The position numbers and the translations under genes are program-made. A stretch of 62,437 bases of DNA, counting the filler, from Planctomycetota bacterium (GTDB lineage: Bacteria > Planctomycetota > Planctomycetia > JALXBF01), in assembly GCA_026991575.1 (NCBI GenBank). It is 5 parts of 5 records of this genome, joined end to end, with 100 filler letters (N's around TTAATTAATTAA, not from the genome) between each part and the next. Parts side by side here need not be neighbours in the genome. Positions count along the whole stretch, not along the records: positions 1 to 25,753 come from JALXBF010000028.1; 4 more parts are not named here. One strand, 5' to 3'. The notes beneath the pieces were generated by a model, which saw only the letters and a program-made list of their open reading frames with translations, ran no database searches and was not told the origin of the DNA. Positions 12,407 to 60,566 of this stretch are shown here, piece by piece (the first letter of the stretch is position 1; each line of letters starts with the position of its first letter).

Positions 12407-13324
12407 TTACCAGTACGTCTCGAAGTGGATGTTGCCCGGGTCCTTCGGATGGTGGATCTTGAAACCGCGTCGAACGAGCAACTCCACCGCACCGGTCGGC
12501 TGGGGAAAGACCAGATTGCCCTGCTCGTCTTTCTTCGGCGGACCGATCATGGCCGGGTTGCCGCAGAGGAAAACATGCGTGCAGGACGGATCAAGCTGCC
12601 AGCCGAGCCGCTCTTCGAGCTCTCCGCTGCGCAGGATGTCCTGGATGTACTTCTTCTCGCGGACTTCCGGGTCGCGCGTGGTCAGCGTGATGTATCGATA
12701 GTTCGGGCGGTACTGCTCGAGCCGCCGGTGGGCCTGTAGGTAAGCGAGGTCACGGCTATAGCGGACGCACACCACGGAACCGATAGGGCCCCGATGGCCC
12801 GAGCGCACGAGTTCCAGGATCATCTTGTTGTGCGGCGCTTCGCCCGTGCCGGTGGCCAGGAACAGCACGCGGTCGTCCGGTTGCACGCCATCCAGTGTGT
12901 AGTGTCCGGTGATCTTTGGGCCGCAAACTAAGCGATCTCCCTCCTTGAGCCGGAACAGTCGCGGGGTCAACGCCGGCGGTTTACCGTTTGCGCGCTTGAC
13001 CAGAACGATGTAGAACTCAAGTTCCGTTTCGTCCTCGGGCCGAATCAGATCGCCATCGCGCCAGATCGAGCTGGAGATCGAGTAGGCGCGGCGGACCACT
13101 TTCCGCACCTGATCCTCGGCCAGTTCCTCCGGCTGTGCCTCGGGCACGCGCGGCTCCCAGTAGCCCAGTCCGAGCGTGGTGTACTGGCCCGGCTTGTACG
13201 GGGGAATCGGAAAATCCGGCCTAACCCTCAGAATCATCAGCTCATCATGTGGCTTGTAGAGGTAGGCGACGGTCGCGTTGTAGTACTTCTGCCGCAGTTG
13301 CGCGATCTCTTCCGGGCTGAGCAT
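12407..13324 (-). CDS. fpr: Ferredoxin--NADP+ reductase
   Basis: GQYTTLG, RAYSISS, ATGTGEAP, CGNPAMI, C-terminal ETYW; AGGAG RBS before the ATG at 13324. Confidence 0.9.
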   Translation of the reverse strand: MLSPEEIAQLRQKYYNATVAYLYKPHDELMILRVRPDFPIPPYKPGQYTTLGLGYWEPRVPEAQPEELAEDQVRKVVRRAYSISSSIWRDGDLIRPEDETELEFYIVLVKRANGKPPALTPRLFRLKEGDRLVCGPKITGHYTLDGVQPDDRVLFLATGTGEAPHNKMILELVRSGHRGPIGSVVCVRYSRDLAYLQAHRRLEQYRPNYRYITLTTRDPEVREKKYIQDILRSGELEERLGWQLDPSCTHVFLCGNPAMIGPPKKDEQGNLVFPQPTGAVELLVRRGFKIHHPKDPGNIHFETYW

Positions 13325-13476
13325 CGCCGTACTCCTGTCCGGCGTGTTGAGCGTATGCGAAACGATCGCCATAGGCGCCCTCCCATTATCCCTCGTGCTG
13401 ACCCATTCCGCGTGGCGAGGAGACACACTCAAATGTAGGTCAAGCCTCAGCGCACCGCGAGGGCGCCTGGGTTGGT

Positions 13477-15357
13477 TCAAAGCCACTGAGCGGCCCAGTC
13501 GATGTCCAGGTCGTTCAACGTGGCGCGGGTGGGCAGGCCGGTGGCCGGGTCCCATCCCATGATCGCATAGTAGTCGCGCAGCCGCTCACGGAACAGGACC
13601 GGATCGATCCGTTCTCCCTTCAGCGGTCCGCTCTCGATCGGCTCGAACATTCGCGGCGGCAGATCGTCGCACGCAGTCCCCCGCCCCTCACGATGGTTGT
13701 AGATCCGGAACAGCGCCGAGCTCCGCTCTGCCGCCTTGCACAGCTCCCACAGCGAGATGTCCCAGCCGGTGACCCCGCGGAGGTAGTCCTCCATCGTGTG
13801 CAGGTCGAGGCTGCCGATTGGAACGCCGACGAAGCAGCACATGCCAATGATGTTGTAGAAGCTCCACAGCTTCTGAGCGTAAGCGAACGCCTTCACTTTG
13901 CGCGGGCTGAAATCAAGCATCGCCACCGGCTCGATCAGCCCCAGGGGCGCAAGGGCATGCTTACCCGGGAAGAACCCCTCAAACAGTGGATCGTGCGGCG
14001 CTTCCATGTGGTCGGCACCGGTGGGGCTGGTGGCATACGCCAGGGCCAAGCTCTTCTTGCCTCGTGGCTCGTGCATCGGTAGCTCTTGACCGCGTACATG
14101 GAGCGCGATCCGCTCAGCCGCCGGCCCCAGCCGCTTGGCAGCACGAGCAACCCCGTCGGCAAGCAACGCGCCGATGCCTCTTCGATGGGCGATCAGCTCG
14201 ATCAGCCGTACGACAACGTCCGGATCACCAAAGCGGAGCTTCAGGCCGTCGGTATCGGCCTCGGTCAGCAAGCCGCGTTCATAGGCCTCGATCGCAAAGG
14301 CGATGACGGCGCCCGTGGAGATGGAATCCAGCACGTACTTGGCACAGAGCTGGTTCGCCAGCGCGATCTTTTTCAGATCCCCTACCGCGTTCAACGAACC
14401 GAGGGCTGCGATCGATTCGTACTCCGGCCCCCCGTACTTCGGCACCACACCGAGTTCCGGCACCGCGACCTCCCGCTTGCACGCAACCGCACACGCGTAG
14501 CAGGTGCCTCGACGGGTGAGGATCGTCTCGGCCATGCGCTGGCCGGTGATGTTCTCAAACTGGTCAAAAACGCCGGTGCGGAAGTTATAGGTGGGCAGGA
14601 TCCCATCGCGCTGCAAGTTCTTCACGCCTCGGGCTGTGCCATAGAGATGCATCGTATCGGAGCGGCGATCGTACACGGAGTTGAAGTGCCGTTGAGCACG
14701 TCGGGCCAACTCCGGCTCAGCCGGCACAACCCGGCCCTTGCCCACGGCAACGACAGCCTTCAGGTTCTTTGACGCCATGACCGCCCCGAGCCCACAGCGG
14801 CCGTGGAAGTGCTTGCAGTTGTTGACCAGAGCGGCAAACCGCACCCGGTTCTCGCCGGCGATCCCGGTCTGCAGCACGACGGCTCTCGGTTCAGCCAGGT
14901 CATCCTTGAGCCGTTCGTCCACCTCGGCGGCCTCGCGGCCCCAGTACTGGCGCCCGTCGCGCAGCTCCCAGCCCCCCTCATAAACCACCAACACCACCGG
15001 CCGCTCCGCCTTCCCCGTAATCAAGATGGCGTCGTAGCCAGCCTGCTTCAGGGCCGGCCCCCAGAATCCCCCTGCCTCACTTTCGCCGAAGGCGAGCGTC
15101 AGCGGACTCTTGGCCACCACCGAGTAGCGGTTTGCCCCCGACATGGCCGTACCGTTCATGGCACTGGTGGCAATGATCAGCGGTGCGCGCGGATCGTAGG
15201 GGTCAAGACCGGGGGGAGTTTCGCGTAGCAGGTAGTACACGCCCAGCAGCCCCCCACCCAGGTAGCGGCGGAGGAAGCCTTCCTCCAACCGCTCCACGCG
15301 CCCTGTGCCACCAGTTAGATCGATCCGCAGCAGGCGTCCGGCAAAGCCACCCGGCAT
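13477..15357 (-). CDS. Aldehyde:ferredoxin oxidoreductase (tungsten-pterin AOR family)
   Basis: LRIDLT, KSPLT, GRCGLGAVMASKNLKA, CYACAVAC Fe-S motif, GPEYE, YYAIMGWD..GLPT. Confidence 0.93.
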   Translation of the reverse strand: MPGGFAGRLLRIDLTGGTGRVERLEEGFLRRYLGGGLLGVYYLLRETPPGLDPYDPRAPLIIATSAMNGTAMSGANRYSVVAKSPLTLAFGESEAGGFWGPALKQAGYDAILITGKAERPVVLVVYEGGWELRDGRQYWGREAAEVDERLKDDLAEPRAVVLQTGIAGENRVRFAALVNNCKHFHGRCGLGAVMASKNLKAVVAVGKGRVVPAEPELARRAQRHFNSVYDRRSDTMHLYGTARGVKNLQRDGILPTYNFRTGVFDQFENITGQRMAETILTRRGTCYACAVACKREVAVPELGVVPKYGGPEYESIAALGSLNAVGDLKKIALANQLCAKYVLDSISTGAVIAFAIEAYERGLLTEADTDGLKLRFGDPDVVVRLIELIAHRRGIGALLADGVARAAKRLGPAAERIALHVRGQELPMHEPRGKKSLALAYATSPTGADHMEAPHDPLFEGFFPGKHALAPLGLIEPVAMLDFSPRKVKAFAYAQKLWSFYNIIGMCCFVGVPIGSLDLHTMEDYLRGVTGWDISLWELCKAAERSSALFRIYNHREGRGTACDDLPPRMFEPIESGPLKGERIDPVLFRERLRDYYAIMGWDPATGLPTRATLNDLDIDWAAQWL

Positions 15358-15460: not shown

Positions 15461-16126
15461 ATGTTGCCACGCGTTCTGGAACCGGAGGCAATGGATAGCG
15501 AGGAAGAGGCACGTGAGTACGACGAGATGGATCATTCGGAAGTCAACCGCCTCTTCGTCGCCGACTTCCTCGCCACCTCCCCATCCCTGCACACGGTCGT
15601 CGACCTAGGCACCGGCACGGCTCGGATCCCGATCGAGCTGTGCCGGCAGGCACCGTCGGCGCGCGTGCTGGCAGTGGATGTCGCCCAGTGGATGCTCCGC
15701 CGCGGTCGTTCGAATGTGCAGCAGGCTGGCTACAGTGACCGTATCCTGCTGCTTCGAGCCAACGCCCGCCGGCTGCCACTGGTCGACGGCGCCGCGGCGT
15801 CGGTCATGTCCAACAGCCTAATCCATCACATCCCTGAACCCGCCGAGGTGCTGGGAGAGATGGTCCGCATTCTCGCCCCCGGCGGCGTCCTCTTCATCCG
15901 CGACCTCATGCGACCGCACTCGCAGCAAGAGCTGCAACGGCTCGTGACACTTTACGCCAGCAACACCACAGCCAAGCAGCGTGCCATGTTCGCAGCCTCG
16001 CTGCATGCAGCCCTTACCGTGCCGGAGGTGCAAGCCCTTGGTCGGCGCTTCGGAATCCAGCCTGAGTCGGTTCGCCCCACCTCCGATCGTCACTGGACGC
16101 TGCTCTGGCGCCGTCCGCACGCCTAG
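15461..16126 (+). CDS. Class I SAM-dependent methyltransferase
   Basis: PRVLEPEAMD N-terminus, VDLGTGTA motif I, SNSLIHHI. Confidence 0.9.
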   Translation: MLPRVLEPEAMDSEEEAREYDEMDHSEVNRLFVADFLATSPSLHTVVDLGTGTARIPIELCRQAPSARVLAVDVAQWMLRRGRSNVQQAGYSDRILLLRANARRLPLVDGAAASVMSNSLIHHIPEPAEVLGEMVRILAPGGVLFIRDLMRPHSQQELQRLVTLYASNTTAKQRAMFAASLHAALTVPEVQALGRRFGIQPESVRPTSDRHWTLLWRRPHA

Positions 16127-17166
16127 CGGTCAGCAATATCGCGGAACGTCACCCGCCACCAGAGCCGGTCGCGGGATACCGGTCTGCCGTTGATCTCGGC
16201 ATGAGGGTAAACGAAGTAATTCAACTGCCCGGCAGCCGCCGGCGGCACTAGCGGTATGTCTCGACCGACGCTCAGCGCCACTCGGTTCTCGGTCAGATTG
16301 CCGAAATAGTACTCCGTAAGCGCGGGGTGCTTATCGGCCTCGGAGATGTCCACCGGTATCCACCCGATGCCGTCGACGTGGAAATACGCCCAGCAGTGGT
16401 AGCCCGGTATCACGCCATGGCCGCGTCGCTCCGGTAACGGGAAGCCAATCACGAATCGAGTGGGGATTCCGTAGTAGCGGGTCATGGCCATGAAAAGGCT
16501 GTGGAAGTCGGTGCAGTTCCCATAGCCGGCCTGGCAGGCCCACTCGACGCTGCCCCGTCCCCATCCGGTCCCCACCTTACGGTAGGTCATATGAGCCAGT
16601 ACCTTGTGGTAAATCGCATACGCCAGCCTGACTTCGTCCCCTTCGGAAGGAAGGCCCCGTAAGAGCCGCAGCGCAGGTCCGCCGACGGGAACCAGCCGAC
16701 TAGGGCTCAGGTACAGCTGCCGCTGCGTCTCGGACAGCTGCACCGGTACCACGTTGCTGGCTCCCTGGAACGCCCTGCCCCGATGTCCGCCAAAGACCGG
16801 AGCCCTCACTTCGACGCGCGTCAACTCAAGCTCCACCTGCACCGCCGCGCCCTCAACGGGCCCGGTCCACCGGGCAAACAGGATCTGGTTGCCGTAGCGG
16901 GGATCGCGGGTCAGTTGTATCCGGCCAGCGCCCCGAATTCGCACGCCATGCAGCCGCTGGTGCGGCGAATCATGCCACAGCGGCAGCCACAGCTGTACCG
17001 CCGTTCCAGGGTGCACGTCGCGCACACCAGCCTCATAGCGCAACACGAACCGCCGCGTAGCCGGTTGGCTCCGGTTCGAATCGTCCGAGCACTGAGCCGC
17101 CGAAACGACGAGCAGGACGGTCAGCAGCGCGGTGCGCAGCTGATGGCAAAGGGCTCTGCAGTACAT
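16123..17166 (-). CDS. Transglutaminase-like domain protein, exported
   Basis: GNCTDFHSLF (Cys), YHCWA (His), WIPVD (Asp) triad; signal peptide. Confidence 0.9.
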   Translation of the reverse strand: MYCRALCHQLRTALLTVLLVVSAAQCSDDSNRSQPATRRFVLRYEAGVRDVHPGTAVQLWLPLWHDSPHQRLHGVRIRGAGRIQLTRDPRYGNQILFARWTGPVEGAAVQVELELTRVEVRAPVFGGHRGRAFQGASNVVPVQLSETQRQLYLSPSRLVPVGGPALRLLRGLPSEGDEVRLAYAIYHKVLAHMTYRKVGTGWGRGSVEWACQAGYGNCTDFHSLFMAMTRYYGIPTRFVIGFPLPERRGHGVIPGYHCWAYFHVDGIGWIPVDISEADKHPALTEYYFGNLTENRVALSVGRDIPLVPPAAAGQLNYFVYPHAEINGRPVSRDRLWWRVTFRDIADR

Positions 17167-17522: not shown

Positions 17523-18380
17523 ATGGCGGCGCGTCGGTTTTGGTGTGTGGTAGCGGGAATCGTGCTCTTGGCGGCCGCGGTGGCGAAGTTCCAGGCCGGG
17601 ACGAGGCTTGCGTACCTGCCGGGACCGCTTGGCGTGGTTGACGCTAGCTGGCCGGCCATTGAAGCTCTCGTAGGAGTAGTCGCGCTGGCTGGTGCCGGTA
17701 GACGGTTGCCCCATCTTGCCGTTACGGCCGTATTTACGCTCATCTTTCTCGTCGCTTTGTACGTGGTGCTGGCGGGCTACCCGTCGTGCGGATGCTTCGG
17801 CGCGGTGGAGATTCCGCCGCTGTTCGTCGCTATGTTGGACGCGGTGATTTTGGCCGGCCTACTGTCTGCTTTCTCGCGGCGGGCCACGACCGCCCTCTTG
17901 ACCGCTGGCGCCGGCCTTGTCGCGGCCGTGTGTACAGCATGGGCACTTGCGCCACCTCCAGCTCCGCTGTATCCATTGGCATGTGGAATCTGGGTGCACC
18001 GCAACGCCGCGGTGGTGCATCTCGACCCCGAGCTATGGCTGGACAGGCAGTGTCCTGTCGGCCTTGTAGGACCAGGCGGCAACGGGCCAACGGCGACGTG
18101 GTGCGTGCTGGTCCGTCCCGACTGTGCTCGCTGCAAGAACTGGGCAGCAGACTTCAAACGCCTTGCCAAGCGGACTGGTGCTAGCTTTCGCGAGTTTGTC
18201 ATTGGAAGCCACACGATGAAGATTGGGAGCGGGCGTTACGAAATCTGCGCGTGGCAGGACCCGGTTGCGTTTCTTGTGGACCGCCGCGGAACAGTGCGAC
18301 GGGTAGAGCCATTTGCCCAGAAGAAGGCTAGGCAGCGAGGGGCTCCACCCCGCTGCCCTATGCGCTACGGCGCGTCGTGA
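17523..18380 (+). CDS. MauE/DoxX family membrane protein with a C-terminal thioredoxin-like CxxC segment
   Basis: LLAAAVAK helix, E in helix 2, SCGCFG motif, about 5 TM segments; later RPDCARC and DPVAF. Confidence 0.75.
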   Translation: MAARRFWCVVAGIVLLAAAVAKFQAGTRLAYLPGPLGVVDASWPAIEALVGVVALAGAGRRLPHLAVTAVFTLIFLVALYVVLAGYPSCGCFGAVEIPPLFVAMLDAVILAGLLSAFSRRATTALLTAGAGLVAAVCTAWALAPPPAPLYPLACGIWVHRNAAVVHLDPELWLDRQCPVGLVGPGGNGPTATWCVLVRPDCARCKNWAADFKRLAKRTGASFREFVIGSHTMKIGSGRYEICAWQDPVAFLVDRRGTVRRVEPFAQKKARQRGAPPRCPMRYGAS

Positions 18381-18738: not shown

Positions 18739-18840
18739 CCGGCGCACGTGGGACGTGGATACCGGGCAAGCCCGGCGTTCCGCGAAGGCAGTAGTGCTGA
18801 GTGGTCGGGGATCTTGCTCGCAAGGGCATGGCCCGGAGAG

Positions 18841-19974
18841 ATGGCCATGGTTGTATGGGTCAGAGGTGGTGTGACCGGTGCGTGTGTCATCGTCACCTTG
18901 TTTGTCAGCCAGCTGCGCCTTTACGCTCAACACGATAGCCGCCTCACCCCGAGCGCCCTGCGTGCAGCGTGGCGCCGTTGGGCCGAGGCGTTCCAGGAAC
19001 TTGCTTGGGAAGGGGTTTATACGTCGAACGTCGAAGAGATCGTTTACCGCAAGAAGACAGCCTCATCCTCAAACTCCGAAGTAAACAGAGACGACCAGGG
19101 ACAAACAGAGCTAGAAAAGGAAATCCGCTCCACTTACCACTACACGTTCCTGTGCAAGTGGCCGGAAATCGTATGGCGAGTTCGTCGAGAGGAAACAATC
19201 ACCAGGCCGGGCCAGCGGCCAACGAGCACCACCAAGCTATCGGCTGGGCTTCTGCGGCAGGGCAGACTCTTTGTGCTGACCGGTAGCGAGAACGGGTGGG
19301 TAGTGCGATCGGTGTTGATGGACGCGTACGACCCCGCGGCACCGCCGGACTATTGGACGCTACTTACGGCGCCGCTGGACGGGCGGGCGGACCACAAACA
19401 ATTCCGATCCTTTGTGTGCGCCCCCATGCGGTACTTGTGTCGGTACCTAGATTCAGGCCGTTTGCGGTTCGATCGTGTGGAATCGACCGACGAAGGATTG
19501 GCGGTAGAATGGCATCTAGAGCTCGAAGGGCTGCCTGAAAACGAGCGTGTCGACCTGACTCCATGGCAGCGGGGCCGCTGGATCCTTGATCCAAACAACT
19601 CGTACATGATCGTGCATTCCGTAATTGCCGGGCCACTGTACCATGGCGGAACCTCAAGACAAGAAGTGAAGGTTCGCTACCGTCGGTACCGAGGGGTTCC
19701 TCTCATGACAGGCGGAAGCCTCCATTTAGTACTGGAGGACGAGAAGTACCTCAATCGATTTACATCGCAGTGGAGCCGTGAGATAGAGCGCGTCTCCACG
19801 GAGGTGGATCGTTCGAAGCTGACACTGACGCGGTTTGGCCTTCCAGACGAGCTTCGGATAGGCCCTCCGACGAAGGGCGTTCCCAGATGGTCTCGCTTGC
19901 TGGTGGCGGCGGTAGCGTTGTTGATTTGTGGCATGCTTCTATGGTGGGTGCGCAGTAGGAAGACGGCGCTCTGA
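18841..19974 (+). CDS. Exported hypothetical protein with a C-terminal membrane anchor
   Basis: N-terminal hydrophobic signal; beta-rich body; C-terminal LLVAAVALLICGMLLWW followed by basic RSRK; start uncertain. Confidence 0.7.
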   Translation: MAMVVWVRGGVTGACVIVTLFVSQLRLYAQHDSRLTPSALRAAWRRWAEAFQELAWEGVYTSNVEEIVYRKKTASSSNSEVNRDDQGQTELEKEIRSTYHYTFLCKWPEIVWRVRREETITRPGQRPTSTTKLSAGLLRQGRLFVLTGSENGWVVRSVLMDAYDPAAPPDYWTLLTAPLDGRADHKQFRSFVCAPMRYLCRYLDSGRLRFDRVESTDEGLAVEWHLELEGLPENERVDLTPWQRGRWILDPNNSYMIVHSVIAGPLYHGGTSRQEVKVRYRRYRGVPLMTGGSLHLVLEDEKYLNRFTSQWSREIERVSTEVDRSKLTLTRFGLPDELRIGPPTKGVPRWSRLLVAAVALLICGMLLWWVRSRKTAL

Positions 19975-20139
19975 GCGAACAGCGTGCTATTTGTGCAAAG
20001 GAATGGTGGGTTGCTCGTTGGCGGGTCGAGGCGAGCGGCGGTGAGAGGCGCCGCTTGGGGAACACAGGGGGGCAGACCGTACATGGCGCCCGTTGGACTC
20101 AGGTGCGGACACGGTCGAGGGCGGTGTGCGGGGGTGGGG

Positions 20140-21885
20140 ATGGCGGCAGCCATCGGGTCGCTGTGGCTTGCCGCAGTGGCTCCGAGCCTCCTCGTACACG
20201 CGCCGAACGTGGACGAGCCGGCCCACTTGATGTCGGCCCTCGCGATCTACCGTCTCTACCGATTTGACATCTACGGGGTAAATCCGCCATTGACGCGAAT
20301 CATCGGCGGGCTCGGAGCATCTAGGTTGGCCCCGGGAGACGGTGACCTCTGGCGAGATTGGACTCGGTATGTCGACCACCCGGGGGCGTACACCGTCTTC
20401 CCCCACGCCCTGTCAACATTTGCGGATCAGCTGCCACACTCGTTCGATTGGCTGCGGGCAGCTCGAGTGGTGCTTGCCGTTGTCACGGTGCTGGGACCGC
20501 TGGCCGTCTGGCTTTGGGCAACTACCGCGTACGGACCGTGGTCCGGCTTGCTGGCCACGGCCCTGTACGGCTTGAACCCCGAGTTGCTACACTGGTCGGG
20601 ATGCCTGAATGCGGACGGCCTTGCGGCCGCGATGGCCGCTGCCACGGGACTTGCGTACGCACTGTACGTGGACAGCCCAACCGTGGGCCGTGCTACTCAG
20701 ACCGGGGTTGTCCTGGGCCTGGCGCTGCTAACGAAGTACACGCTTCTGCTGCTCGCCGTGTTCGTGATCTGTTCGGAGCTCGCCTGGGCGCTGTGGTTGG
20801 CCTTGAGCCGTAAGCGGCACGAGGCACTGAGTCGGCTGTTCCATCTGATGTTCGTCGCCGGGATCGCCTGCTTTGTGGTCAATCTGGGGTACGGAGGCAC
20901 CGGCCACTGGCGCGCGCTGGGCGAGTACACGTTTCGCAGTGATCCTCTGGCAACGGTTCGTTCCATCGCCGTCGCAATGACGGGTGGTCTTGTGCAGGAA
21001 ATTCCCCTGCCGGTGCCGGACCTGTACATATACGGTCTGGACGTCCAGCTGCACGACACGGCCATCGCCCGTCCCACGTGGGTAGCCGGCCGCCTGCATC
21101 CACACGGCGTCAGCTACTTCTACCTCTATGGGTTACTGGTGAAGCTCCCGCTCGGCTTTTGGATCCTTGTCCTCTGGCGCGCGGCCCAGGCACTTCGCAG
21201 GCCGGGACTACGAGAGGGACGTGCTGTACTGTACCAACTCGTGCCGGGCTTGCTGATCCTTGGCATGCTGTCAACATTCTCCACCCTGACCGTCTTCCTG
21301 CGCTACGCGACGCCTGTTCTGCCGTTTCTGATCGTCTGGACCAGCGGTCTACTTGGTGCAGGTCGCCCTCGATTCACGCGACTGGCTGCCGTGGTGTGCC
21401 TGCTTGGCTGGCAGCTCTGGGCCGTCGCTAGCGCTGCGCCGCACTACCACGCTTACCTGAACGAGTTGGTTGGCGGACCTGCCGGCGGCTACCGCTACTT
21501 CGCCGGCCCGTCGGTTTCGTTCTACGAGGACTTCTTCGTCGTCCGGCGGCTGTGGCAGCAATACCGCAACAAGGGTGAGCCCGTGTTCGTGTCTTTCCGG
21601 GACGCGTGCCGCCTAACCAGCTACTGGCGGCTGGACGCTCCCAAGGTACCACCTCCCGAAGAGTTCGGCGATTCAGGCCCCCCTGTCGGATGGTACATCG
21701 TGGACCCGCACACCCTGGTGCAGCTCTATCCGGAAGCTCCAGAGACACGTTTTCTGCACTACATCCGCTATCTCAACCCGGTAAGGGTCGAAGGCTCCGT
21801 ACTCGTGTATCATGTGACCAAAGAAGACGCGGCCAGAATAGCTCGGCTACTCGGAAGCGGGAACCAGTCATCCCCGGAGAGGTGA
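20140..21885 (+). CDS. GT-C fold glycosyltransferase (PMT_2/ArnT/GT39-like)
   Basis: NVDEPAHL, VNPPL, GLALLTKYT, YFYLYGLLVKLP, RY..P.LPFL, YLNELVGGP; multiple TM helices; start may be as early as 19984. Confidence 0.85.
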   Translation: MAAAIGSLWLAAVAPSLLVHAPNVDEPAHLMSALAIYRLYRFDIYGVNPPLTRIIGGLGASRLAPGDGDLWRDWTRYVDHPGAYTVFPHALSTFADQLPHSFDWLRAARVVLAVVTVLGPLAVWLWATTAYGPWSGLLATALYGLNPELLHWSGCLNADGLAAAMAAATGLAYALYVDSPTVGRATQTGVVLGLALLTKYTLLLLAVFVICSELAWALWLALSRKRHEALSRLFHLMFVAGIACFVVNLGYGGTGHWRALGEYTFRSDPLATVRSIAVAMTGGLVQEIPLPVPDLYIYGLDVQLHDTAIARPTWVAGRLHPHGVSYFYLYGLLVKLPLGFWILVLWRAAQALRRPGLREGRAVLYQLVPGLLILGMLSTFSTLTVFLRYATPVLPFLIVWTSGLLGAGRPRFTRLAAVVCLLGWQLWAVASAAPHYHAYLNELVGGPAGGYRYFAGPSVSFYEDFFVVRRLWQQYRNKGEPVFVSFRDACRLTSYWRLDAPKVPPPEEFGDSGPPVGWYIVDPHTLVQLYPEAPETRFLHYIRYLNPVRVEGSVLVYHVTKEDAARIARLLGSGNQSSPER

Positions 21886-21886
21886 C

Positions 21887-22375
21887 ATGGCAAGGAAACA
21901 CGTGATGGCCGTGGCCCCGACGTGGTTCGTGTTCCTGGCGGTGGGGGTGTTGCTTGCCGGTACGGTCGTCCTGGTACGCTTGGAGGGAACCCCAGTCGTT
22001 TTCGAACCACCGGAGCCGCGCGTAGAGGACGCGACGGCAGGGACACGAGTCAAAGTGCCGCTGGGCATTCGCAATGTGAGCACGAGAGAAGTGACCATCG
22101 TAGGGGCGCACAGGGGGTGAGGAATCCGCCTGGTTAGCAGCGTGCCGGTCCGGCTCGCTCCAGGTCAGACGACCAACGTGGTTTTCGAGGTCCTTGCTCC
22201 ACGCGCGGGCAAGACATTCGTGTACCCGATGATGCTGTGCGTGAACGATGGACGCGCCCTTTATCTACTGCAGGGGCAGATTACCATAAGCAGCCGACAG
22301 GAAGAACCCAAGCAAACCGATGGATCGGCACGGGAATCGTCGCACGCGGCGGATGCGCCTGATCACCCGTCATGA
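21887..22375 (+). CDS. Membrane-anchored DUF1573-like (Ig-like) protein with in-frame TGA at codon 78; candidate selenoprotein, otherwise a pseudogene
   Basis: ORFs 21887-22120 and 22142-22375 are in the same frame, joined by TGA plus 7 sense codons: IRNVSTREVTIVGAHRG*GIRLVSSVPVRLAPGQ. Confidence 0.6.
22128..22165 (+). promoter_or_regulatory. Candidate bacterial SECIS hairpin
   Basis: CCTGG(22129-33)/CCAGG(22160-64), AGCG/CGCT and GCC/GGC stems with apical GGTCC loop 27 nt after the TGA. Confidence 0.5.
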
Positions 22376-23053
22376 TCGCGCCGCAATCAGCCCAACTGGG
22401 TGACCGAGAGGACCATGCCTACACCAATTGCCCTGGTCTGGCCGCAAGCGGAGTTCGAACCAGACTGAATCCAACTTGCGGGCCTGATGTCTGCGGGTAG
22501 CGCCAACCTGTATCTTGACAACGCATGTATTCCGCCGCGCGCCGGGAAGCCGCCAGGGAAAGTGCAGCCTGTGACTCTGGCTCGCGGTCAACGTCTGGAG
22601 AGCTGCTGCGCATGCCCAGTAGCTAAAGGGCACTTCCCTGCTGAGAGGTTAGCAAGGTGTCTAGCCAGAACCTCCGATCCGGACTTTGCCGCGCGTGCAC
22701 ACGGGCGCGTCCCAGGCTTGCCAGCTCGTCCACGAATGACGGAGAAGGACCGACCGGCTGCCCATCCACCGCACGCTCGTGTGCCTCCTTGCTGCGTGCC
22801 CTCTGCGGTCGCGGGGGAGTCACGCTGCACCGCTGCGGTATAGCCGATTCGCAGTCGCAATCCGCGAACAACAGCGGCATGCACGCTGATCCATGCGATC
22901 ACGCAACTGGGCAGCCGGACAGAGAACGGCACCGGCCCCCACTCTACGAAGCGTCACCATAGCGTCGGTCGGACGACCTCAGGCCTGGCTAACGCAGGAC
23001 GTACGACACAGCGGTCAACTGGGGGGCCACCCTGGTGCCAGTTCGGTTTCGGA

Positions 23054-23878
23054 TCACTGGTCGCCATTTGAGCCGACGCGCCGTTGTCTACTGGAGCGCA
23101 ACCCGAGAGCCGTTAGGGCAACACCACAAATCAATGAGCCCATTGTCGCCGGCTCAGGCGTCGGATGACTCCAGAATCGCACGTCGTCAATCACTGCATT
23201 CAAATACTGTCCATCACGCCGCGCACCGATCCATGGTCCTATTGAGGTGCGAAGCCCGGGCTCGCCGTTGAACGGCCCGGTAACCTCTTTCACCAGTGTA
23301 CCGTTGAGCCACACCCGGTTGAACTGCTGATACTTGTACTCGATCTCCAGAAATACCCACGTATTCAGAGGAATGGTTCCACCCCATATCTCTGTGTGGC
23401 CGGTCCCGCTCTCCTGCCAGATACTTGATCCGGCCGCGCCACTGTCATACACGTACATCCCATATGCCCAGGTCCCACTCGGTTCGGTTGGCGGTCCACC
23501 CAGCGAGACGACTGGCTGTCTGGCTTGCGGGTGCCCATCGGTATTCACTGCCAGCACCTTGATCCACGCCGATATACGGATCACGCCCGTGTAGTACGCC
23601 GTGCCGGGAACATGCGTGGAAAACCACTCGCTGGCGGGCAACTCCACGTAGTCGTTAATCCCGTCGAAGAGCAGCGCTCCAGCCGGGTTGCCGAACCGGT
23701 CAGTCGCGGGAACCGCGCCCGAGATGGTGCCATGCAACCCGTTGGGCCCCGCATCGTTGGCGTTTCCGTCCATCGGGTAGTACGCTATAAGTCCCCCACT
23801 GGCGCTGTCTGCCGGGCCCAGCACGGCAACCAGTGCGGCAATCATGACAAAGGTGATGTGGTTTGCCCACCGCATCAA
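23054..23878 (-). CDS. PEP-CTERM-sorted LamG/concanavalin-A-like protein
   Basis: Signal peptide; GLIAYYPMDGNAND..TDRFG..ALLFDG..IDDVRFW LamG pattern; C-terminal TPEPATMGSLICGVALTALGLRSSRQRR; GGAGG RBS. Confidence 0.88.
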   Translation of the reverse strand: MMRWANHITFVMIAALVAVLGPADSASGGLIAYYPMDGNANDAGPNGLHGTISGAVPATDRFGNPAGALLFDGINDYVELPASEWFSTHVPGTAYYTGVIRISAWIKVLAVNTDGHPQARQPVVSLGGPPTEPSGTWAYGMYVYDSGAAGSSIWQESGTGHTEIWGGTIPLNTWVFLEIEYKYQQFNRVWLNGTLVKEVTGPFNGEPGLRTSIGPWIGARRDGQYLNAVIDDVRFWSHPTPEPATMGSLICGVALTALGLRSSRQRRVGSNGDQ

Positions 23879-24452: not shown

Positions 24453-25753
24453 TTACCGCTCGTCTATGCGATAGATTCGCACGGCGGGCGTCACATAGTG
24501 AACCGGGTCGACTGATCGCAGGTGTGCGTAGGGGCTGTCGAGTTCATAAAGCGCGCGGACGAAAACGGCGTAGGTGCCGGTAAGCCGTCGGCTGAGGTGG
24601 GCCTGGCCGGATGAGCGGCTAGGATCGACCGGCAGCGTTCCTTGCTCCAGCCCAGCTGCTTTCAACAGGTGACGGGCAAATAGGTTGCTGTACACAATCC
24701 CGTCTAGCTTGACGTTGGGATGACGCTCCAGCCATCGTTTCAGCGCTAGCAGATCCTGGCCCCAGTCGATGTTGCTGTCCAACAGGTGCTTGTGGCCGTT
24801 GTACGCACCGCCGCTCGGATAGTTGAAGAACGACTCAGAGTGCGGTAATTGGCTCAAGCTGGCCGCAATGCCCAGCAGGAGTGCGAGGCAGGCCGTTGCG
24901 GTAAGCAGTCGACCTGCCGTGCGCCGCCTTGTTGGTGGCACCAGCGCCGTGCAGGAGAAAAGGTAAAGCAGCGGCAGGGCCGGCAGCACGTAGCGGTAAT
25001 GGTGGCTGAAGCCGCGCTGCGTGCTGACGACGCCGAAAACAAATGCCGCCGTGCCCAGGACGACCCACGTCCAGAACTGCCTGGGGCGCAACGCAAGTGA
25101 CACGACCGCGACGGCAAACAGGACAAGGTACCCGGCCGGCTCCTTGACAAGGGCCGCGTAGGCGTAGTACACATACCAGCCACCTTTCCGCCACCTGCCC
25201 GCCATGTACGACCAGAACCCCTGCTCGAAGTCGACCCGCTGTCGATCAATGCCGAGCACGTAGTCCTCGGGCAGTGGAACGGGGATGTGTTCGAGCAGGG
25301 TCCCGCGGAAGCGATTTCCGGGTGCTTCGATGGACGCGCTCGGTCCACCCAACAGTTGGGAACGGAACGGGAATGCCCCCAGAGGGCGTGCCAGACCACG
25401 GAAACCGTAGCTGGCGGCGATGACGGTAAGCGAGACGACCGCGGCAAGGGCAAGCTGCCCACACACCGCCCGTAGTCGATGCTGTCGTCTGCCGAGCAGC
25501 CAGGCAGCGGCAGTCAGCGGCGGCACCAGAAGCAGGCAGGTGAACTTGCTGGCGCACGCCAGCCCCAGTGCCCCGCCGAACGCTGCTGCCCCGGCCCACG
25601 TGGGACGTTCGCACCAGAGAGCAAAAACGAGGACCGTGGTCGCGGCGAAAGCCGCGGCACACGCATCAGGTACCAGAAGGGCACTGTAGGCGAGCACCGT
25701 GGGGGAAAAACAATACATCGCGGCCGCAGCCAGCCCCACACGCGCGCCCCAGT
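24453..25753 (-). CDS. Second GT-C (PMT_2/ArnT-like) glycosyltransferase, 5' end truncated by the contig end
   Basis: GLACASKFT, PLPEDYVLGID, GWYVYY..LVKEP, RYVLP.LP, LLDSNIDWGQDL. Confidence 0.85.
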
Positions 25754-25853
25754 NNNNNNNNNNNNNNNNNNNNNNNNNNNNNNNNNNNNNNNNNNNNTTA
25801 ATTAATTAANNNNNNNNNNNNNNNNNNNNNNNNNNNNNNNNNNNNNNNNNNNN
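25754..25853. other. Artificial contig linker
   Basis: N-run, TTAATTAATTAA (stops in all frames), N-run; identical at four positions. Confidence 0.97.
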
Positions 25854-26492: not shown

Positions 26493-27290
26493 CTACTGTC
26501 GCACAGCGTTCGGTCTGACCAGGTGCTCGACTGCATCCACGACGAGAGCTCAGGCGAGGAGGCCTGGGCCACGTACTGGACTCGGTTCATTCAGCAACAG
26601 GCTCGGCAACCCGCCTGTGCCGTCTACATCACCGAGATGTGGGACGCATGGGATCTGCACCATTTCCGGCACCGCAGGACACTCGATCACCGGCAACCGT
26701 ACGGTGTCGGTGATGTGTCGCAGAACAGCCACCAGAAAGGCCAGCTCAACGGGAACCGCCGCCGCTGGGCGCGCTGCTAACGGATGCGTATCGCACCGGG
26801 CCCGATGAACACGGTGAAGTGTTCGGGGCCGACGGCGGCCGATTCGGCGACGCACGGGGCGACATCGAACGCTGGTGGCGGTCCTTGGTGGGGCGGCCGC
26901 AGTGGTTCATTCTCACCGCCCCCCCTACTGCCTGGGACTGAGCGAACCGGCCCGCGCATGGATCCGTACGGCACGCATGGTGGAGCCGCTCGTGCCTTTC
27001 CGACAACTCGAATCACTGCTCCGCTTGTTGGAGGATCGCGCGGCGAGCGAAGCGCACCTGGCGACCTGGCCCGGCAGGCCCACGTGATCGACTTGCCCGG
27101 TGGCGGCTCCGTTCAGCCGGATCTCACTCACCAGTCGGGCCGCTATGAGCTACACTGGTTCAACGTACAGAAGGCAAACGCCTTGCCCGGCCCTGCGGGC
27201 GAGGGGGGCAAGGAGGCGCTCCTGCAACCAGCCGGCAGAGGCCACGGGGTTAGTGGGCTGCTGGGGGCGCGCGGGGCCGATGAGGGCTAG
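26493..27290 (+). pseudogene. 5'-truncated, multiply frameshifted remnant of a conserved glycoside-hydrolase-like protein
   Basis: Conserved-looking segments switch frame: DESSGEEAWATYW..TEMWDAWDL..DVSQNSHQKG / PMNTVK / FGADGGRFG..IERWWR / HRPPYCLGLSE / LHWFNV. Confidence 0.55.
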
Positions 27291-27327
27291 GCCCCTAGCG
27301 GGCCGCGTGCGAATGCCGGATCGAGCA

Positions 27328-28086
27328 ATGGCTGGCTTGTGCCTGAATATCTTCGTCAGTGTCCAGACGGTTGCTGAGGCCCGTGTGGCGGCCCGCTACC
27401 CGTGTATCGTCGATGTCAAGAATCCGCGACGCGGCAGTCTGGGAGCGCCCTCCTCGCGACAGCTGTCGCTGGTGGAGGCGGTGGTGCGGCCGAAACAGCG
27501 ACCGATGAGTGTTGCGCTGGGCGATGGTCCCCCATGGCAGACTTCCGACGGCGTGCCCGTCGACCAGTTGGTGGCGCTGGCGGACGTGCAGTTCGTGAAG
27601 CTGGGCCTGGCCGGCGTGGTCGAGCTATGCACCTCGCTAGAGCTCTTTGATCTGGTGTGCGAAGCGATCATACGGATCCGGCGGGCCAATCGGCATGTTG
27701 CTGTGGTGCTCGGAACCTTTGCTGACTACCATCGTTGTGCCGCTCCGCCGCCGGCGGAACTCATCGACCTGGCCGCCTACAGCGGGGCCGACGGGGTGCT
27801 GGTGGACACGTATGAGAAGCGGGCGAATGAGTCGCTGTTTACGCACATGCCATGGCGCGAGCTGCAGCGGTTGCGCCATCGCTGTGCCCTGCATGCACTT
27901 CGCTTTGCCGTGGCCGGGAACCTGCAGCCAGGCCACGTCTTCTTGCTCAAGAACGTCCAACCCCACTATGTTGGCTTTCGCTCAGCGCTGACCCGGGCCG
28001 GTTCGCGCCGCAGCACACTGGACGAACGCAAGCTTGCTGCTCTGTGTGACATGTTGCTGGCTGCGCGGCAGGTCGTTCGCGCCTGA
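27328..28086 (+). CDS. mfnB: (5-formylfuran-3-yl)methyl phosphate synthase (DUF556, methanofuran synthesis)
   Basis: VSV..VAEA, IVDVKNPRRGSLGA, SVALGD, VKLGL, LVDTYEK, AG.L, GFRSA. Confidence 0.85.
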   Translation: MAGLCLNIFVSVQTVAEARVAARYPCIVDVKNPRRGSLGAPSSRQLSLVEAVVRPKQRPMSVALGDGPPWQTSDGVPVDQLVALADVQFVKLGLAGVVELCTSLELFDLVCEAIIRIRRANRHVAVVLGTFADYHRCAAPPPAELIDLAAYSGADGVLVDTYEKRANESLFTHMPWRELQRLRHRCALHALRFAVAGNLQPGHVFLLKNVQPHYVGFRSALTRAGSRRSTLDERKLAALCDMLLAARQVVRA

Positions 28087-42376: not shown

Positions 42377-44941
42377 CTACGGCAGTTGGCCAGGCCTGGA
42401 CACATTCGGCTCTGCGGCAGGAACCTGACTTGCCTCTCTCGGACCGTTCTCACTGACTGCCTTGATGAACTCATTGTCCGGATCGCCAAGCAGGATCAGC
42501 CGCCGTTTCGGGCGCGTCGCAGCGACGTAGAAGATACGTTCCTCTTCGGCATCCCAGTGCCGCCCGTCCTCAGCGCCATTACCCCGACGGCACAGTGGGA
42601 ACAGCCCGTTGTGCAGCCCGGCAACGTACACCGTATCGAACTCCATCCCTTTGACCTGATGGACCGGCAGCACAGGCAACCCCTCATCGATCATTGTCAG
42701 CTCGACATTGCGCACCAGCGCGCACGTGTGGAGCACCTCCTGCACCAACGGTCGGCTCGGCACGATGTCTCTTCCCCCCTGGAAGCGAACGATGTGCTCT
42801 ACCAACTCCGACAGATGCCTCCATCGTTCCGGATCGTGCTTGTAGACCTCGTCCAGGCCAATCAGCTGCAGACCGTCGGCAAGTAGCTGGGCAGGGGGTT
42901 GCTTCCAGACCAGGGACCGCAGCTGATCCAACGCGGCCGCCGTCGGTCCTACGTTCTCGGCCACCGGCTCAAGCAAAGTACGCCGTTCGTTTGTAGCCAG
43001 CGAGATCGCTACAAGCAGTTGCCGCGCCAGCTGTACCGTTGCGTACACGTCGTCCTTGGCCCGGTGGCTGGGCCGGTGCGAGAGCTCTAGGGTTTCAGCC
43101 AGCGTGCGGAGGTCATACCGCTCAACGTTGGGCAAGACCCTCCGGGCAAGCTCCCGCGTGTCGTCCCAGTCGTTCATCTCCGGCAGAGCGATGCCACAGC
43201 GACGGGCGTGGCTGCGGAGCACGTCGAGGTCGAAGCTGACATTGTGCCCGACAATGTGCACGCCTTGCAGGAACTCGGCAATCCGTCGAAACGCTTTTGG
43301 CGGGGGTGTTCCGCCTGCGCGCAACTCGTCTTCGGTTAACCCGTGGATGTCCTGCCCTTCGATCCGACCTTCAATCGGCCAAAACAAAAGGTGAAGCTCA
43401 GCGACAATCTTGCCGTCCTGCACCCTGGTACCGAAGAACTCGATGACCTCTGCCTTGTTAGGGTCCAGTCCGGTCGTTTCGACATCAAGGACCACAACGG
43501 ACCCGTCACGCCAGCGCGCAAGCAACGGCGCAAAGGGCTCGCCGTGCTGCCAGGTACGTGCCATCAGCAGATCGCACAGGCGCACGTAACAACTGCGGCC
43601 CTGCTCCACGATCTGCTTCAGCGTCCGGTCCCCGACGCCGATCTTCAACGACCGCAGCAGCCGTCGGGCGGACCAGGAATCGAACGGATTGGCGATCAAT
43701 CTCAGCAACGCCAGAGCGTCCTTGATCTCCTTTCGGCGGAAGAACTCAAAGCGGTCCACCAGGCAGACCTGGATGCCAGCCTGTTGCAGCTCCCCGGCAA
43801 CCTCCTCCGCATGCCTCCTGGTCCTGGTCAGTACCACGGCCTTATGTGACCGTGGGTCAAGCTTGTTCTGGCGGATGTCTTGGGCAATGACTCGAGCTTG
43901 CTCCGATGCCGCGCGCGCCGCGACGGTCACGACCGGATCGCCCGCCAAGCTGCCGCTTGGCGCTTTCGGTGCCGGCAGGTCGGGGGCGTACCGGCGCAGC
44001 AGCCGTGCGGCGACATCGACCAGCGTCTTGGTGGACCGGAAGTTGTACGAAAGGGTGAATTCTTTCGGTTTGAACGCCTCTTTGTACCGACGCAGCACCG
44101 TCCGTGGGCACGATCCGCGCCACTCGTAGATCGTCTGGGCAATGTCCCCGAAAAAGGACAGTTGGCCATGGTCGCGCGCGAGCATCTCCAGGACGGCGTA
44201 CTCAGCCAGATGCGTGTCTTGAACCTCATCCACCTGGATCCACTGAAACCGCTCTGCCCAGTAACGCCGGCAGGCGTCGTCTGTGTAGAAGAGATGTCGG
44301 ACATAGCGGATCAAGTCTGAGAAGTCGACGGCACTGGCGGCACTGAGCGCCCGGTCGTAGCGACGCAGTAATTGGGCTACGTAGTCCGGCCCGCCGAAGC
44401 TATGAGGACTAGGGCCTTCCTCAGAAGCCATGGTGTTGAGGATGTCCTTGATCGAGTCGTCCAGGCTGTGTTGCTTGAGCTTTACGCGGCTGAGAAGCTC
44501 CCAGCACGATCGCGCCGCGCGCCGTACGTCCTTATCGAACGCGGCCAGGTTCTGCTCGGCGATCTCCCTCAGCAGTTCCGGGCCATCGACATCGTCGAGG
44601 ATCATGTACTCGCGTGGGATTCCCACCCGGTCACCGTCACGTCGGAGCACTTCGGCACAGAACCGGTGAAACGTGGCGCAGAAAACCGCCCTGGCCTGTT
44701 CTCCCAGCCGGTGCGCGACACGATTCTGGATTTGTCGCGCGGCACGGTTCGTGAAGGTCAGGCACAATGTGCGGTCAGCTGCCACCGTGCCGGATTCGAT
44801 CGCGTAACGTAGCCGCTCGGCCATGGTGAGCGTCTTGCCACTGCCGACCATGGCCAGCACCAGGACCGGGTGGTTTACGCAGTGGACCACGGCCCGCTGC
44901 TCGTCAGTGAGCCTGATGCTCGCCAGATCCGTGCTTGTCAT
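42377..44941 (-). CDS. UvrD/Rep helicase with an inserted DEDDh (DnaQ-like) 3'-5' exonuclease
   Basis: GSGKT, LTFTNRAA, VDEVQD, QTIYEWRG, NFRS, KGMEFD, YVAATR; insert LDVETTG..HNVSFD..HRAKDD. Confidence 0.9.
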   Translation of the reverse strand: MTSTDLASIRLTDEQRAVVHCVNHPVLVLAMVGSGKTLTMAERLRYAIESGTVAADRTLCLTFTNRAARQIQNRVAHRLGEQARAVFCATFHRFCAEVLRRDGDRVGIPREYMILDDVDGPELLREIAEQNLAAFDKDVRRAARSCWELLSRVKLKQHSLDDSIKDILNTMASEEGPSPHSFGGPDYVAQLLRRYDRALSAASAVDFSDLIRYVRHLFYTDDACRRYWAERFQWIQVDEVQDTHLAEYAVLEMLARDHGQLSFFGDIAQTIYEWRGSCPRTVLRRYKEAFKPKEFTLSYNFRSTKTLVDVAARLLRRYAPDLPAPKAPSGSLAGDPVVTVAARAASEQARVIAQDIRQNKLDPRSHKAVVLTRTRRHAEEVAGELQQAGIQVCLVDRFEFFRRKEIKDALALLRLIANPFDSWSARRLLRSLKIGVGDRTLKQIVEQGRSCYVRLCDLLMARTWQHGEPFAPLLARWRDGSVVVLDVETTGLDPNKAEVIEFFGTRVQDGKIVAELHLLFWPIEGRIEGQDIHGLTEDELRAGGTPPPKAFRRIAEFLQGVHIVGHNVSFDLDVLRSHARRCGIALPEMNDWDDTRELARRVLPNVERYDLRTLAETLELSHRPSHRAKDDVYATVQLARQLLVAISLATNERRTLLEPVAENVGPTAAALDQLRSLVWKQPPAQLLADGLQLIGLDEVYKHDPERWRHLSELVEHIVRFQGGRDIVPSRPLVQEVLHTCALVRNVELTMIDEGLPVLPVHQVKGMEFDTVYVAGLHNGLFPLCRRGNGAEDGRHWDAEEERIFYVAATRPKRRLILLGDPDNEFIKAVSENGPREASQVPAAEPNVSRPGQLP

Positions 44942-45003
44942 CGTCACCCCCGAAAGTTCCCCTGTTGGGAACGTTCTCTTGAACGGCCGCTTGCGGCGCA
45001 ATC

Positions 45004-46425
45004 CTACCCCACCGGCACAAACACGAAGTCCCGGTCCCGCCACGGCGGGCACGCCAGCCGTTTCAGCAGTTCGTTCAGTTCTGCGGAGCCTATCCCCGCA
45101 TGGTGCCACACGACCCACAGGACATCGGCCTCTTGTGGTCGGCTATGGGGCAATGGTGTGAAGCCGTCCGTCAGCACGACCACGAGTGTCGGCGGCGGAT
45201 GCAATTGAAGAGCAGCCTGGAGCCCGGCCCGCATGTCGGTGCCACCGCCGCCTCGCAGTCGGCGGCGCAGACTGGCCACCTCGCGCCTCGACCGCACAAC
45301 GATCGGCTCATAGGCGACGGCATCACACGGGATCACCACGATCGGTCCAGCAACCTGGACGAGCAGTGCCCCGAGCTCTGCCACTGCCTGGCCGAGCTCC
45401 TGCTGAGAAATCGAACCGGATGTGTCGACAACACAGGCGACACGGGGCACCAACTTGCCGGCCAGGCGTGGCAGGACAAACGGCTCGTAGGCCGCAGACT
45501 TCCGATGCGGTCGTGCGTAGCAGTAGTCAATGCGCGCCTCGGATCCTAGCGCCAGCTTACCGCGCACCGCACGCCGTAGCCGCTCCTGCCAGCGAACCAT
45601 CGGCTTACACTGCTGCTCGGCCCAACGTAGCGCGCCGCGCGGCAACGTGCCGCGGGCCTTATGTTCGAGAATGTCTCGCGCGACGGTGGCCTGAATCTGA
45701 GCGGCGATCTGCTGGAGCTCATGGGCACCACTCTTCTCTGTGCTCGCCTGGCCAGCGGTAACCGCGCCGAGGTGCGCAGCGATGCCGTCGGCGGAAAGCG
45801 GCGCGCCGTTGATGTCACGGGCCGTCTCGGGCAGACCGAAACGGTCAAACAGCCGCTCCTGCAACTTCTGGTCGACGGCCTCCGGCCTCGAGTGCTCGGA
45901 ACCGAACGGCCATCGTCCCCGTCTCGACCCAGCTGTCCGCTTGCTGGCCGAGTGCCGTGCTCGCTCTAGCATCCGAAGGAACTGTTCGTAGTACCACTCC
46001 GCCGTACGACCGGCCGGCAGTTCGAGCTTCTTTGGTTCGATCAGCCACCACTCGTCCGGGCGGGCCAAGCCCGGCGGGGTCCAGTCGTTGATTTCCAGGT
46101 CGCAGGCCAGATGCCAGAGGCTGCGGTAGCGGTTGCCGCAGCGGTCAACGTGATCGCGCAGGAAATGGCATGTCAGATGCACGCAGCCGAACGCCAGTTT
46201 GGCTACTGCCTGCTTCGTGTCTTGCCTGGCCAACTCGCGCAGCCGATCGACGTCCCAGTAAGCCGTAAGCGGGGGCACGTACGCCACAACAGTGCCGATC
46301 CCATGGGCCAGCCGGTGCTTGAATGCAACCAGGGCCCTGCCGTAGTAGGGGGCGTGGTCCAGGGCGTAGAACCGCGCGAGCCTCAGCAGCTTACGTAGCT
46401 TGTCGATCTCGGTCGAAAAACTCAT
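45004..46425 (-). CDS. DUF2201-type protein (metallopeptidase-like N-terminus + vWA domain)
   Basis: ACDLEIND, AEWYY, VDTSGS MIDAS, GGGGTD, LTDG. Confidence 0.85.
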   Translation of the reverse strand: MSFSTEIDKLRKLLRLARFYALDHAPYYGRALVAFKHRLAHGIGTVVAYVPPLTAYWDVDRLRELARQDTKQAVAKLAFGCVHLTCHFLRDHVDRCGNRYRSLWHLACDLEINDWTPPGLARPDEWWLIEPKKLELPAGRTAEWYYEQFLRMLERARHSASKRTAGSRRGRWPFGSEHSRPEAVDQKLQERLFDRFGLPETARDINGAPLSADGIAAHLGAVTAGQASTEKSGAHELQQIAAQIQATVARDILEHKARGTLPRGALRWAEQQCKPMVRWQERLRRAVRGKLALGSEARIDYCYARPHRKSAAYEPFVLPRLAGKLVPRVACVVDTSGSISQQELGQAVAELGALLVQVAGPIVVIPCDAVAYEPIVVRSRREVASLRRRLRGGGGTDMRAGLQAALQLHPPPTLVVVLTDGFTPLPHSRPQEADVLWVVWHHAGIGSAELNELLKRLACPPWRDRDFVFVPVG

Positions 46426-51058: not shown

Positions 51059-51158
51059 NNNNNNNNNNNNNNNNNNNNNNNNNNNNNNNNNNNNNNNNNN
51101 NNTTAATTAATTAANNNNNNNNNNNNNNNNNNNNNNNNNNNNNNNNNNNNNNNNNNNN
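51059..51158. other. Artificial contig linker
   Basis: N-run/TTAATTAATTAA/N-run. Confidence 0.97.
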
Positions 51159-58455: not shown

Positions 58456-58555
58456 NNNNNNNNNNNNNNNNNNNNNNNNNNNNNNNNNNNNNNNNNNNNT
58501 TAATTAATTAANNNNNNNNNNNNNNNNNNNNNNNNNNNNNNNNNNNNNNNNNNNN
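58456..58555. other. Artificial contig linker
   Basis: N-run/TTAATTAATTAA/N-run. Confidence 0.97.
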
Positions 58556-60466: not shown

Positions 60467-60566
60467 NNNNNNNNNNNNNNNNNNNNNNNNNNNNNNNNNN
60501 NNNNNNNNNNTTAATTAATTAANNNNNNNNNNNNNNNNNNNNNNNNNNNNNNNNNNNNNNNNNNNN
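60467..60566. other. Artificial contig linker
   Basis: N-run/TTAATTAATTAA/N-run. Confidence 0.97.

Follow-up and report, generated by a model that had tools for sequence, protein, structure and literature searches.

A probable selenoprotein of the DUF1573 type encoded across an in-frame UGA codon in a Planctomycetota draft genome

In a draft genome of a Planctomycetota bacterium (GCA_026991575.1), an in-frame TGA codon separates two short open reading frames downstream of a gene for a membrane glycosyltransferase. Does this codon terminate a short gene, or is it read as selenocysteine (Sec) within a single, longer one? Here, we address this question by analyzing the whole stretch of DNA in which the locus lies (62,437 nucleotides; hereafter, the window). 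In automatic annotation, the locus appears as two "hypothetical proteins" of 77 aa each, and the relatives in public protein collections are split likewise. We conclude that the two parts probably form a single gene that was mis-split by annotation and that encodes a selenoprotein, a divergent addition to the already listed DUF1573 selenoprotein family.

Structure of the interrupted reading frame and its predicted domain

The features of the locus are the following.

20041-21885, + strand: gene for a GT-C (PMT_2/ArnT-like) membrane glycosyltransferase (Pfam PF13231, 31.8 bits; cut-off, 26.1)
21876-21882, + strand: Shine-Dalgarno-like GGAGAGG, 4 nt before ATG 21887, read from the sequence
21887-22120, + strand: ORF A, start ATG 21887, 77 aa, stop TGA 22118-22120
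21887-22117, + strand: codons 1-77, for a short basic N-terminus, a signal-anchor helix, and the first beta-sandwich strands (translation, AlphaFold2 model, and relative P0005)
21917-21988, + strand: predicted signal-anchor helix, residues 11-34 (AlphaFold2 helix; strands start at residue 37)
22118-22120, + strand: codon 78, the in-frame TGA and proposed Sec codon (Cys column in homologues; published DUF1573 motif UGC)
22121-22372, + strand: codons 79-162, for the remaining beta-sandwich to about residue 136, followed by a low-confidence polar tail (AlphaFold2 model, P0004/P0007, and G+C pattern)
22128-22165, + strand: stem-loop within the coding region, candidate bacterial SECIS (-20.1 kcal/mol by RNA folding)
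22142-22375, + strand: ORF B, start GTG 22142, 77 aa, stop TGA 22373-22375
22373-22375, + strand: true stop codon, also TGA, read from the sequence

As originally predicted, and with the sequence quoted there confirmed, ORF A and ORF B are in one frame and separated only by the TGA at 22118-22120 and seven sense codons (22121-22141); translation through this TGA yields a protein of 77 + 1 + 84 = 162 residues. The motif at the site, as translated, is U-G-I, with Ile at position +2. Inspection of the sequence 5-12 nt ahead of GTG 22142 revealed no Shine-Dalgarno-like purine run. In the candidate frame, the G+C contents by codon position are 0.69/0.48/0.74 in the part that precedes the TGA and 0.68/0.49/0.66 in the part that follows. 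On both sides, the pattern is of the coding type found in the upstream gene (0.67/0.50/0.73), and it also matches the pattern in four long genes of the window that have Pfam support. Based on the shared frame, the G+C pattern, and the single domain described below, the UGA lies within one continuous coding region.

The AlphaFold2 model of the read-through protein, computed from a 12-row alignment (mean pLDDT, 85.7; pTM, 0.66), consists of a helix (residues 11-34) and a single beta-sandwich (residues 37-136) that is continuous across the TGA. The block-mean pLDDT is 92 for residues 71-80, 97 for residues 81-90, and 92-98 over residues 71-140. Based on Foldseek comparison with the PDB, the model resembles the Ig-like domains of PapD, ASH, HYDIN, and VesB proteins; the best match is 4lk4 (VesB Ig-like domain; E 1.9e-6), and further matches are 6fvi (CEP192, ASH/PapD-like), 2e6j and 2ys4 (HYDIN, PapD-like), and 2qsv (a Porphyromonas protein). 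The predicted fold is, accordingly, the PapD/ASH-like Ig beta-sandwich of DUF1573 domains. A sequence-profile search of the PDB returned only weak matches to ASH-type ciliary proteins (E 0.007).

At the level of sequence, the assignment to DUF1573 (PF07610) is distant. With Cys put at residue 78, the family matches residues 45-120, a span that includes the TGA, at 14.1 bits (E 0.047), which is below the Pfam gathering cut-off of 26.1 bits. With X at residue 78, Pfam gives no DUF1573 match, and NCBIfam holds no family for the read-through protein. The link to DUF1573 is transitive: Pfam was run on eight full-length homologues that the window protein had retrieved, namely P0009 and the seven aligned below; four pass the cut-off (P0009, P0010, P0014, and P0017) and one scores 25.9 bits. 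The best explanation of these observations is a 162-residue type II membrane-anchored protein with a divergent DUF1573-type (PapD/ASH-like) beta-sandwich that, judging from the predicted topology, would be extracytoplasmic. The protein had originally been described as exported. The N-terminal signal-anchor helix in the AlphaFold2 model supports this description in part, and the protein is better called membrane-anchored, with its domain presumably outside.

The Cys column and the relatives interrupted at the same codon

HMMER, run exhaustively against 1.84 billion cluster representatives, returned 18 matches at E<=1e-3. Twelve of these were retrieved and 10 were aligned with the query, leaving out P0003, which is the window's own ORF A, and the two-domain protein P0009; six long multi-domain matches (P0006, P0011, P0012, P0013, P0018, and P0020) are outside the retrieved set. 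In all seven aligned full-length homologues (P0008, P0010, P0014, P0015, P0016, P0017, and P0019), which are 23-34% identical to the window protein, the TGA column is occupied by Cys. For these seven proteins and the query, the alignment is ungapped between the flanking blocks RN.S..VT..GA and P...PG. The expected presence of a DUF1573 Cys motif at the position of the stop is, thus, borne out at codon 78, with conserved blocks on both sides of the site, and the UGA stands opposite a conserved Cys in the manner of a Sec/Cys pair.

The TGA column corresponds to the first Cys of a C.C motif, e.g., GCGC in P0019; GCGC can also be read in each of the two domains of P0009. The second Cys, at +2, is present in six of the seven aligned full-length homologues, and the window has Ile. 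Compared with the motif of DUF1573 selenoproteins as printed in reviews, the proposed Sec, therefore, takes the place of the first Cys of C-G-C, while Ile is found where a Cys would follow two residues later.

The closest relatives are interrupted as well. Apart from the window's own ORF, the three closest matches (P0005, P0004, and P0007) are halves only, all known from predicted proteins only, and no full-length form is found among the close relatives in the 18 HMMER matches. P0005 (72 aa) matches residues 10-77 with 62% identity, and its last residue is exactly the one that precedes the TGA. P0004 (80 aa; 74% identity) starts with MSSVPVRL, which aligns to VSSVPVRL six residues past the TGA, and P0007 (90 aa; 46% identity) starts with MPVRLAP; the starts of these two proteins are, thus, six to eight residues past the TGA. 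P0004 and P0005 may share one organism, so that the number of independent interrupted lineages is two to three. A word-based protein search among proteins of similar lengths found nothing, and among shorter ones, it found only the window's ORF A and P0004, which is encoded on a 2374-nt contig. Searches of genome contigs gave 103 pattern matches with the alignment of the C-terminal halves and 55 with the glycosyltransferase and its two relatives, none of which was confirmed.

Sec decoding, the candidate SECIS, and alternative explanations

The hairpin originally proposed as SECIS-like at 22128-22165 is real as a predicted structure (-20.1 kcal/mol) and fits the SECIS rules. Its upper part (22139-22159; -11.3 kcal/mol) consists of 4 bp, a U.U mismatch, and 4 bp and ends in the apex GCCG-GUC-CGGC, with the loop GUC at 22148-22150, at a distance of 27 nt from the UGA. 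We take the G-GUC-C apex to resemble the GGUC loop of the E. coli fdhF SECIS. The hairpin is compatible with all four published bSECIS constraints, including a spacing between UGA and loop that is 16-37 nt in the consensus bacterial model as given in PMC13188914. However, of the 1414 TGA triplets that the window contains, 256 (18%) pass a comparable, simplified SECIS filter, with the folding energy of the candidate at the 28th percentile, and because of this background, the hairpin carries little weight. Compared with dinucleotide shuffles, the 81-nt region is not exceptionally stable (z = -0.22; 76/200 shuffles fold as well), and the contiguous 4-bp upper stem scored alone gives only -3.7 kcal/mol. 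Rfam returned no SECIS family for the whole window at gathering thresholds or for 21850-22420 (571 nt) at E<=10.

The hairpin encodes the PVRLAP stretch of the protein, and the top of the helix encodes P-V-R (CCG GUC CGG). When the interrupted forms of the window, P0004, and P0007 are aligned, PVRLAP is the only run of six residues that is invariant in all three, and the Cys homologues vary at these positions. The invariance in the interrupted forms at the top of the putative hairpin could reflect a constraint on the RNA.

Pfam scanning of 33 window ORFs revealed no SelA, SelB, or SelD domains, and no tRNA-Sec was found in the window, in which the sole tRNA is tRNA-Glu. TGA ends 11 of the 24 Pfam-backed ORFs of the window. 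A global reassignment of TGA was considered and rejected, since TGA is an ordinary stop in these 11 ORFs; any recoding at codon 78 would, consequently, be site specific and not the result of a changed code. A screen of the window for ORF pairs bridged by TGA gave 152 pairs. Nine of these, comprising eight from the 11 with the best scores besides the candidate and one ranked 13th, were translated through the TGA. All nine look non-coding or antisense, and none supports the use of Sec in a second selenoprotein.

Three explanations that do not involve Sec have to be weighed against these data. If the stop were a real, conserved terminator, the locus would give rise to a truncated 77-aa product, or it would be a split gene with separately made halves, the second from GTG 22142. 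That gene callers in the source collections call the halves as separate proteins fits this explanation, as do the lack of Sec machinery in the window and a hairpin that is within background. Against it, the position of the break coincides exactly with the Cys column and is in the middle of a single beta-sandwich, with pLDDT >90 on both sides, and the relatives preserve the downstream half with its frame undisrupted, at identities of 74% and 46%. Moreover, ORF B has neither a signal or anchor helix nor a Shine-Dalgarno sequence, and its product would presumably be located across the membrane from the half-domain made from ORF A. We consider a conserved terminator unlikely. The conservation of both halves together with the stop would be explained equally well by read-through of the UGA without Sec machinery, i.e., by near-cognate insertion of Trp or Cys or by another type of programmed read-through, which would yield a selenium-free full-length protein, and for which the lack of sel genes in the window poses no difficulty. 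However, we know of no read-through mechanism that targets a Cys column specifically, and TGA is a normal stop in nearly half of the Pfam-backed ORFs, as counted above. Alternation between Cys and UGA is, rather, described in PMC13188914 as the hallmark by which selenoproteins are found, and in the published tables considered below, DUF1573 is already listed as Sec-containing at the same residue. Sec-free read-through is, therefore, very unlikely in our view.

The third explanation is an error in sequencing or assembly or a recent nonsense mutation (e.g., TGC/TGT to TGA), either of which would make the locus a simple pseudogene. The assembly is a draft made of joined contigs, and TGC, the commonest Cys codon in the window (145 TGC vs 47 TGT), is one substitution away from TGA. 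However, relatives that are 62%, 74%, and 46% identical break at the same place. A break shared across 46-74% identity argues strongly against an error or a recent mutation private to this genome, and the downstream half staying in frame at 74% and 46% identity argues against a decaying pseudogene. We regard this explanation as extremely improbable.

Altogether, the data favor the reading of the locus as a selenoprotein gene. The original prediction is partly supported, by a TGA in the middle of a single domain and at the Cys column of a family for which selenoproteins are in print, and by relatives that are split at the same site. Not supported are the hairpin as a distinguishing feature and the proposed role in disulfide formation, to which we return below. 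We suggest that the UGA at codon 78 of a single gene would be read as Sec, which would replace the first Cys of the CxC motif of the family and give U-G-I. SelB and Sec-tRNA(Sec) would be recruited by the stem-loop at 22128-22165, with its G-U-containing apical loop 27 nt after the UGA, and would outcompete RF2 at UGA 22118, while the second TGA (22373) would terminate translation normally. This model presumes that the stop in the relatives is also UGA, that the organism has Sec machinery, and that the hairpin functions as a SECIS. The Sec could serve as a redox or metal-binding residue at the outer face of the membrane; because of the Ile at +2, no selenylsulfide would form within the motif.

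Genomic neighbourhood and comparison with known selenoproteins

The contigs in the window are joined by spacers (N44-TTAATTAATTAA-N44, with stops in six frames) at 25754-25853, 51059-51158, 58456-58555, and 60467-60566. The window is, therefore, a chain of at least five contigs, in which physical linkage to the candidate is limited to positions 1-25753, and genes beyond are not necessarily its neighbours. The stop codon of the glycosyltransferase gene (TGA 21883-21885) lies 1 nt before the candidate ATG at 21887, and because of this spacing, the two genes are probably co-translated. The form of the glycosyltransferase in the library (P0021; 614 aa) has the relatives P0022 and P0023, which are 74% and 55% identical to it. 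These identities parallel those of the halves, suggesting co-inheritance. A 408-aa ORF without a Pfam or NCBIfam family (18748-19974, + strand), which shares the frame of the glycosyltransferase ORF and ends 9 nt ahead of it, is probably also part of the operon of the candidate.

The Sec had originally been proposed to provide a redox residue for a neighbouring disulfide-forming system. This proposal is not supported. The MauE-like ORF (17523-18380, + strand) scores 24.8 bits, below the Pfam cut-off of 27, and is located 3.5 kb upstream of the candidate with two genes between, while the gene that is coupled to the candidate encodes the PMT_2-type glycosyltransferase.

Several other genes of the window are recorded here as separate observations. 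A gene with a Transglut_core domain (16123-17166, - strand) is divergent from the MauE-like ORF; based on the available part of PMC4807772, a transglut_core gene is present inside the Sec-insertion operon of one planctomycete, and we regard this correspondence as probably a coincidence. A second PMT_2-type glycosyltransferase gene (24453-25739, - strand; 27.9 bits), cut by the contig end, is convergent with the operon of the candidate. Between them, 23054-23878 (- strand) encodes a Laminin_G_3/ConA-like protein with the C-terminus PTPEPATMGSLICGVALTALGLRSSRQRR, which we take to resemble a PEP-CTERM sorting tail. A gene for an aldehyde:ferredoxin oxidoreductase (13477-15357, - strand; AFOR_N and AFOR_C, E 1e-120) adjoins one for an NAD_binding_1 oxidoreductase (12407-13555, - strand), and the next contig carries a gene for a 4-HFC-P synthase of the methanofuran type (27100-28086, + strand). 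Together, these three genes hint at an anaerobic or C1 metabolism. Finally, 42377-45118 (- strand) encodes a UvrD-type helicase whose UvrD_C region contains an insertion, at residues 542-697, of an RNase_T (DEDDh) exonuclease domain.

The coupling to the glycosyltransferase gene allows a more specific speculation. The protein could represent a lineage-specific, extracytoplasmic DUF1573 protein with a lone Sec and without a resolving Cys that is made and works together with the GT-C glycosyltransferase at the outer face of the membrane, for example in a lipid-linked glycosylation step, of which it could be a substrate or to which it could contribute, as a partner, selenium-based redox chemistry or metal handling. 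We consider this rather doubtful as it stands. If true, it would be the first clue to a function of DUF1573, and the protein would be a periplasmic selenoprotein of a kind not described in Planctomycetes. In any case, an anchored Sec protein together with a GT-C glycosyltransferase is a testable pairing for a domain family without a known function. Confirmation of the Sec reading itself would extend the few listed DUF1573 selenoproteins by a divergent branch, probably of planctomycete origin, and it would imply that this draft genome decodes Sec, in which case other genes split by TGA in it would merit re-reading.

The tables of PMC9312934 and PMC13188914 include DUF1573 (PF07610), with the motif UGC, among the selenoprotein families of prokaryotes. 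In the sections concerned, both reviews credit Zhang & Gladyshev 2007, the study of the Olavius symbionts (PMC1976440), in the available part of which the names are of the OS_HP type and DUF1573 is not mentioned. According to PMC4807772 with its tables S8 and S9, a complete set of Sec genes is present in some Planctomycetes. Table S9, in its available part, contains 13 split-gene selenoprotein candidates from two Planctomycetes, none of which is described as DUF1573, and our literature search yielded no DUF1573 selenoprotein reported from a planctomycete.

Compared with the published DUF1573 selenoproteins, i.e., with their printed motif and not their sequences, the window protein is alike in having the proposed Sec at the first Cys of CxC/CGC, abundant Cys homologues, and a stem-loop after the UGA within the coding region. 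It differs in the Ile in place of the second Cys and in its Pfam score, only 14.1 bits against the 26.1 of the cut-off. Its setting is also different: it is planctomycete-like (DUF1598 and DUF7133), with coupling to a GT-C glycosyltransferase gene, whereas the published proteins are from a deltaproteobacterial symbiont. Small anchored Cys-containing DUF1573 proteins (P0010 and P0014 to P0017; 148-178 aa) share with the window protein the arrangement of one N-terminal helix and one DUF1573 domain as well as the blocks that flank the site, RN.S..VT[IL][IV]GA on the N-terminal and P...PG on the C-terminal side; they are 23-32% identical to it and carry C.C where the window has TGA-G-I. Relative to E. 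coli fdhF-type and consensus bSECIS elements, the candidate hairpin is alike in being a stem-loop just 3' of the UGA whose small apical loop, at a spacing of 27 nt, contains G-U; however, such hairpins are common in this DNA with its 64% G+C. A parallel in gene layout is to the Planctomycetes candidates in table S9 of PMC4807772, and the locus in the window is split in a similar way. As described there, each candidate is annotated as a pair of neighbouring genes that are separated by an in-frame UGA; the closest homologue has Cys, and bSECISearch detects a hairpin for most of the candidates.
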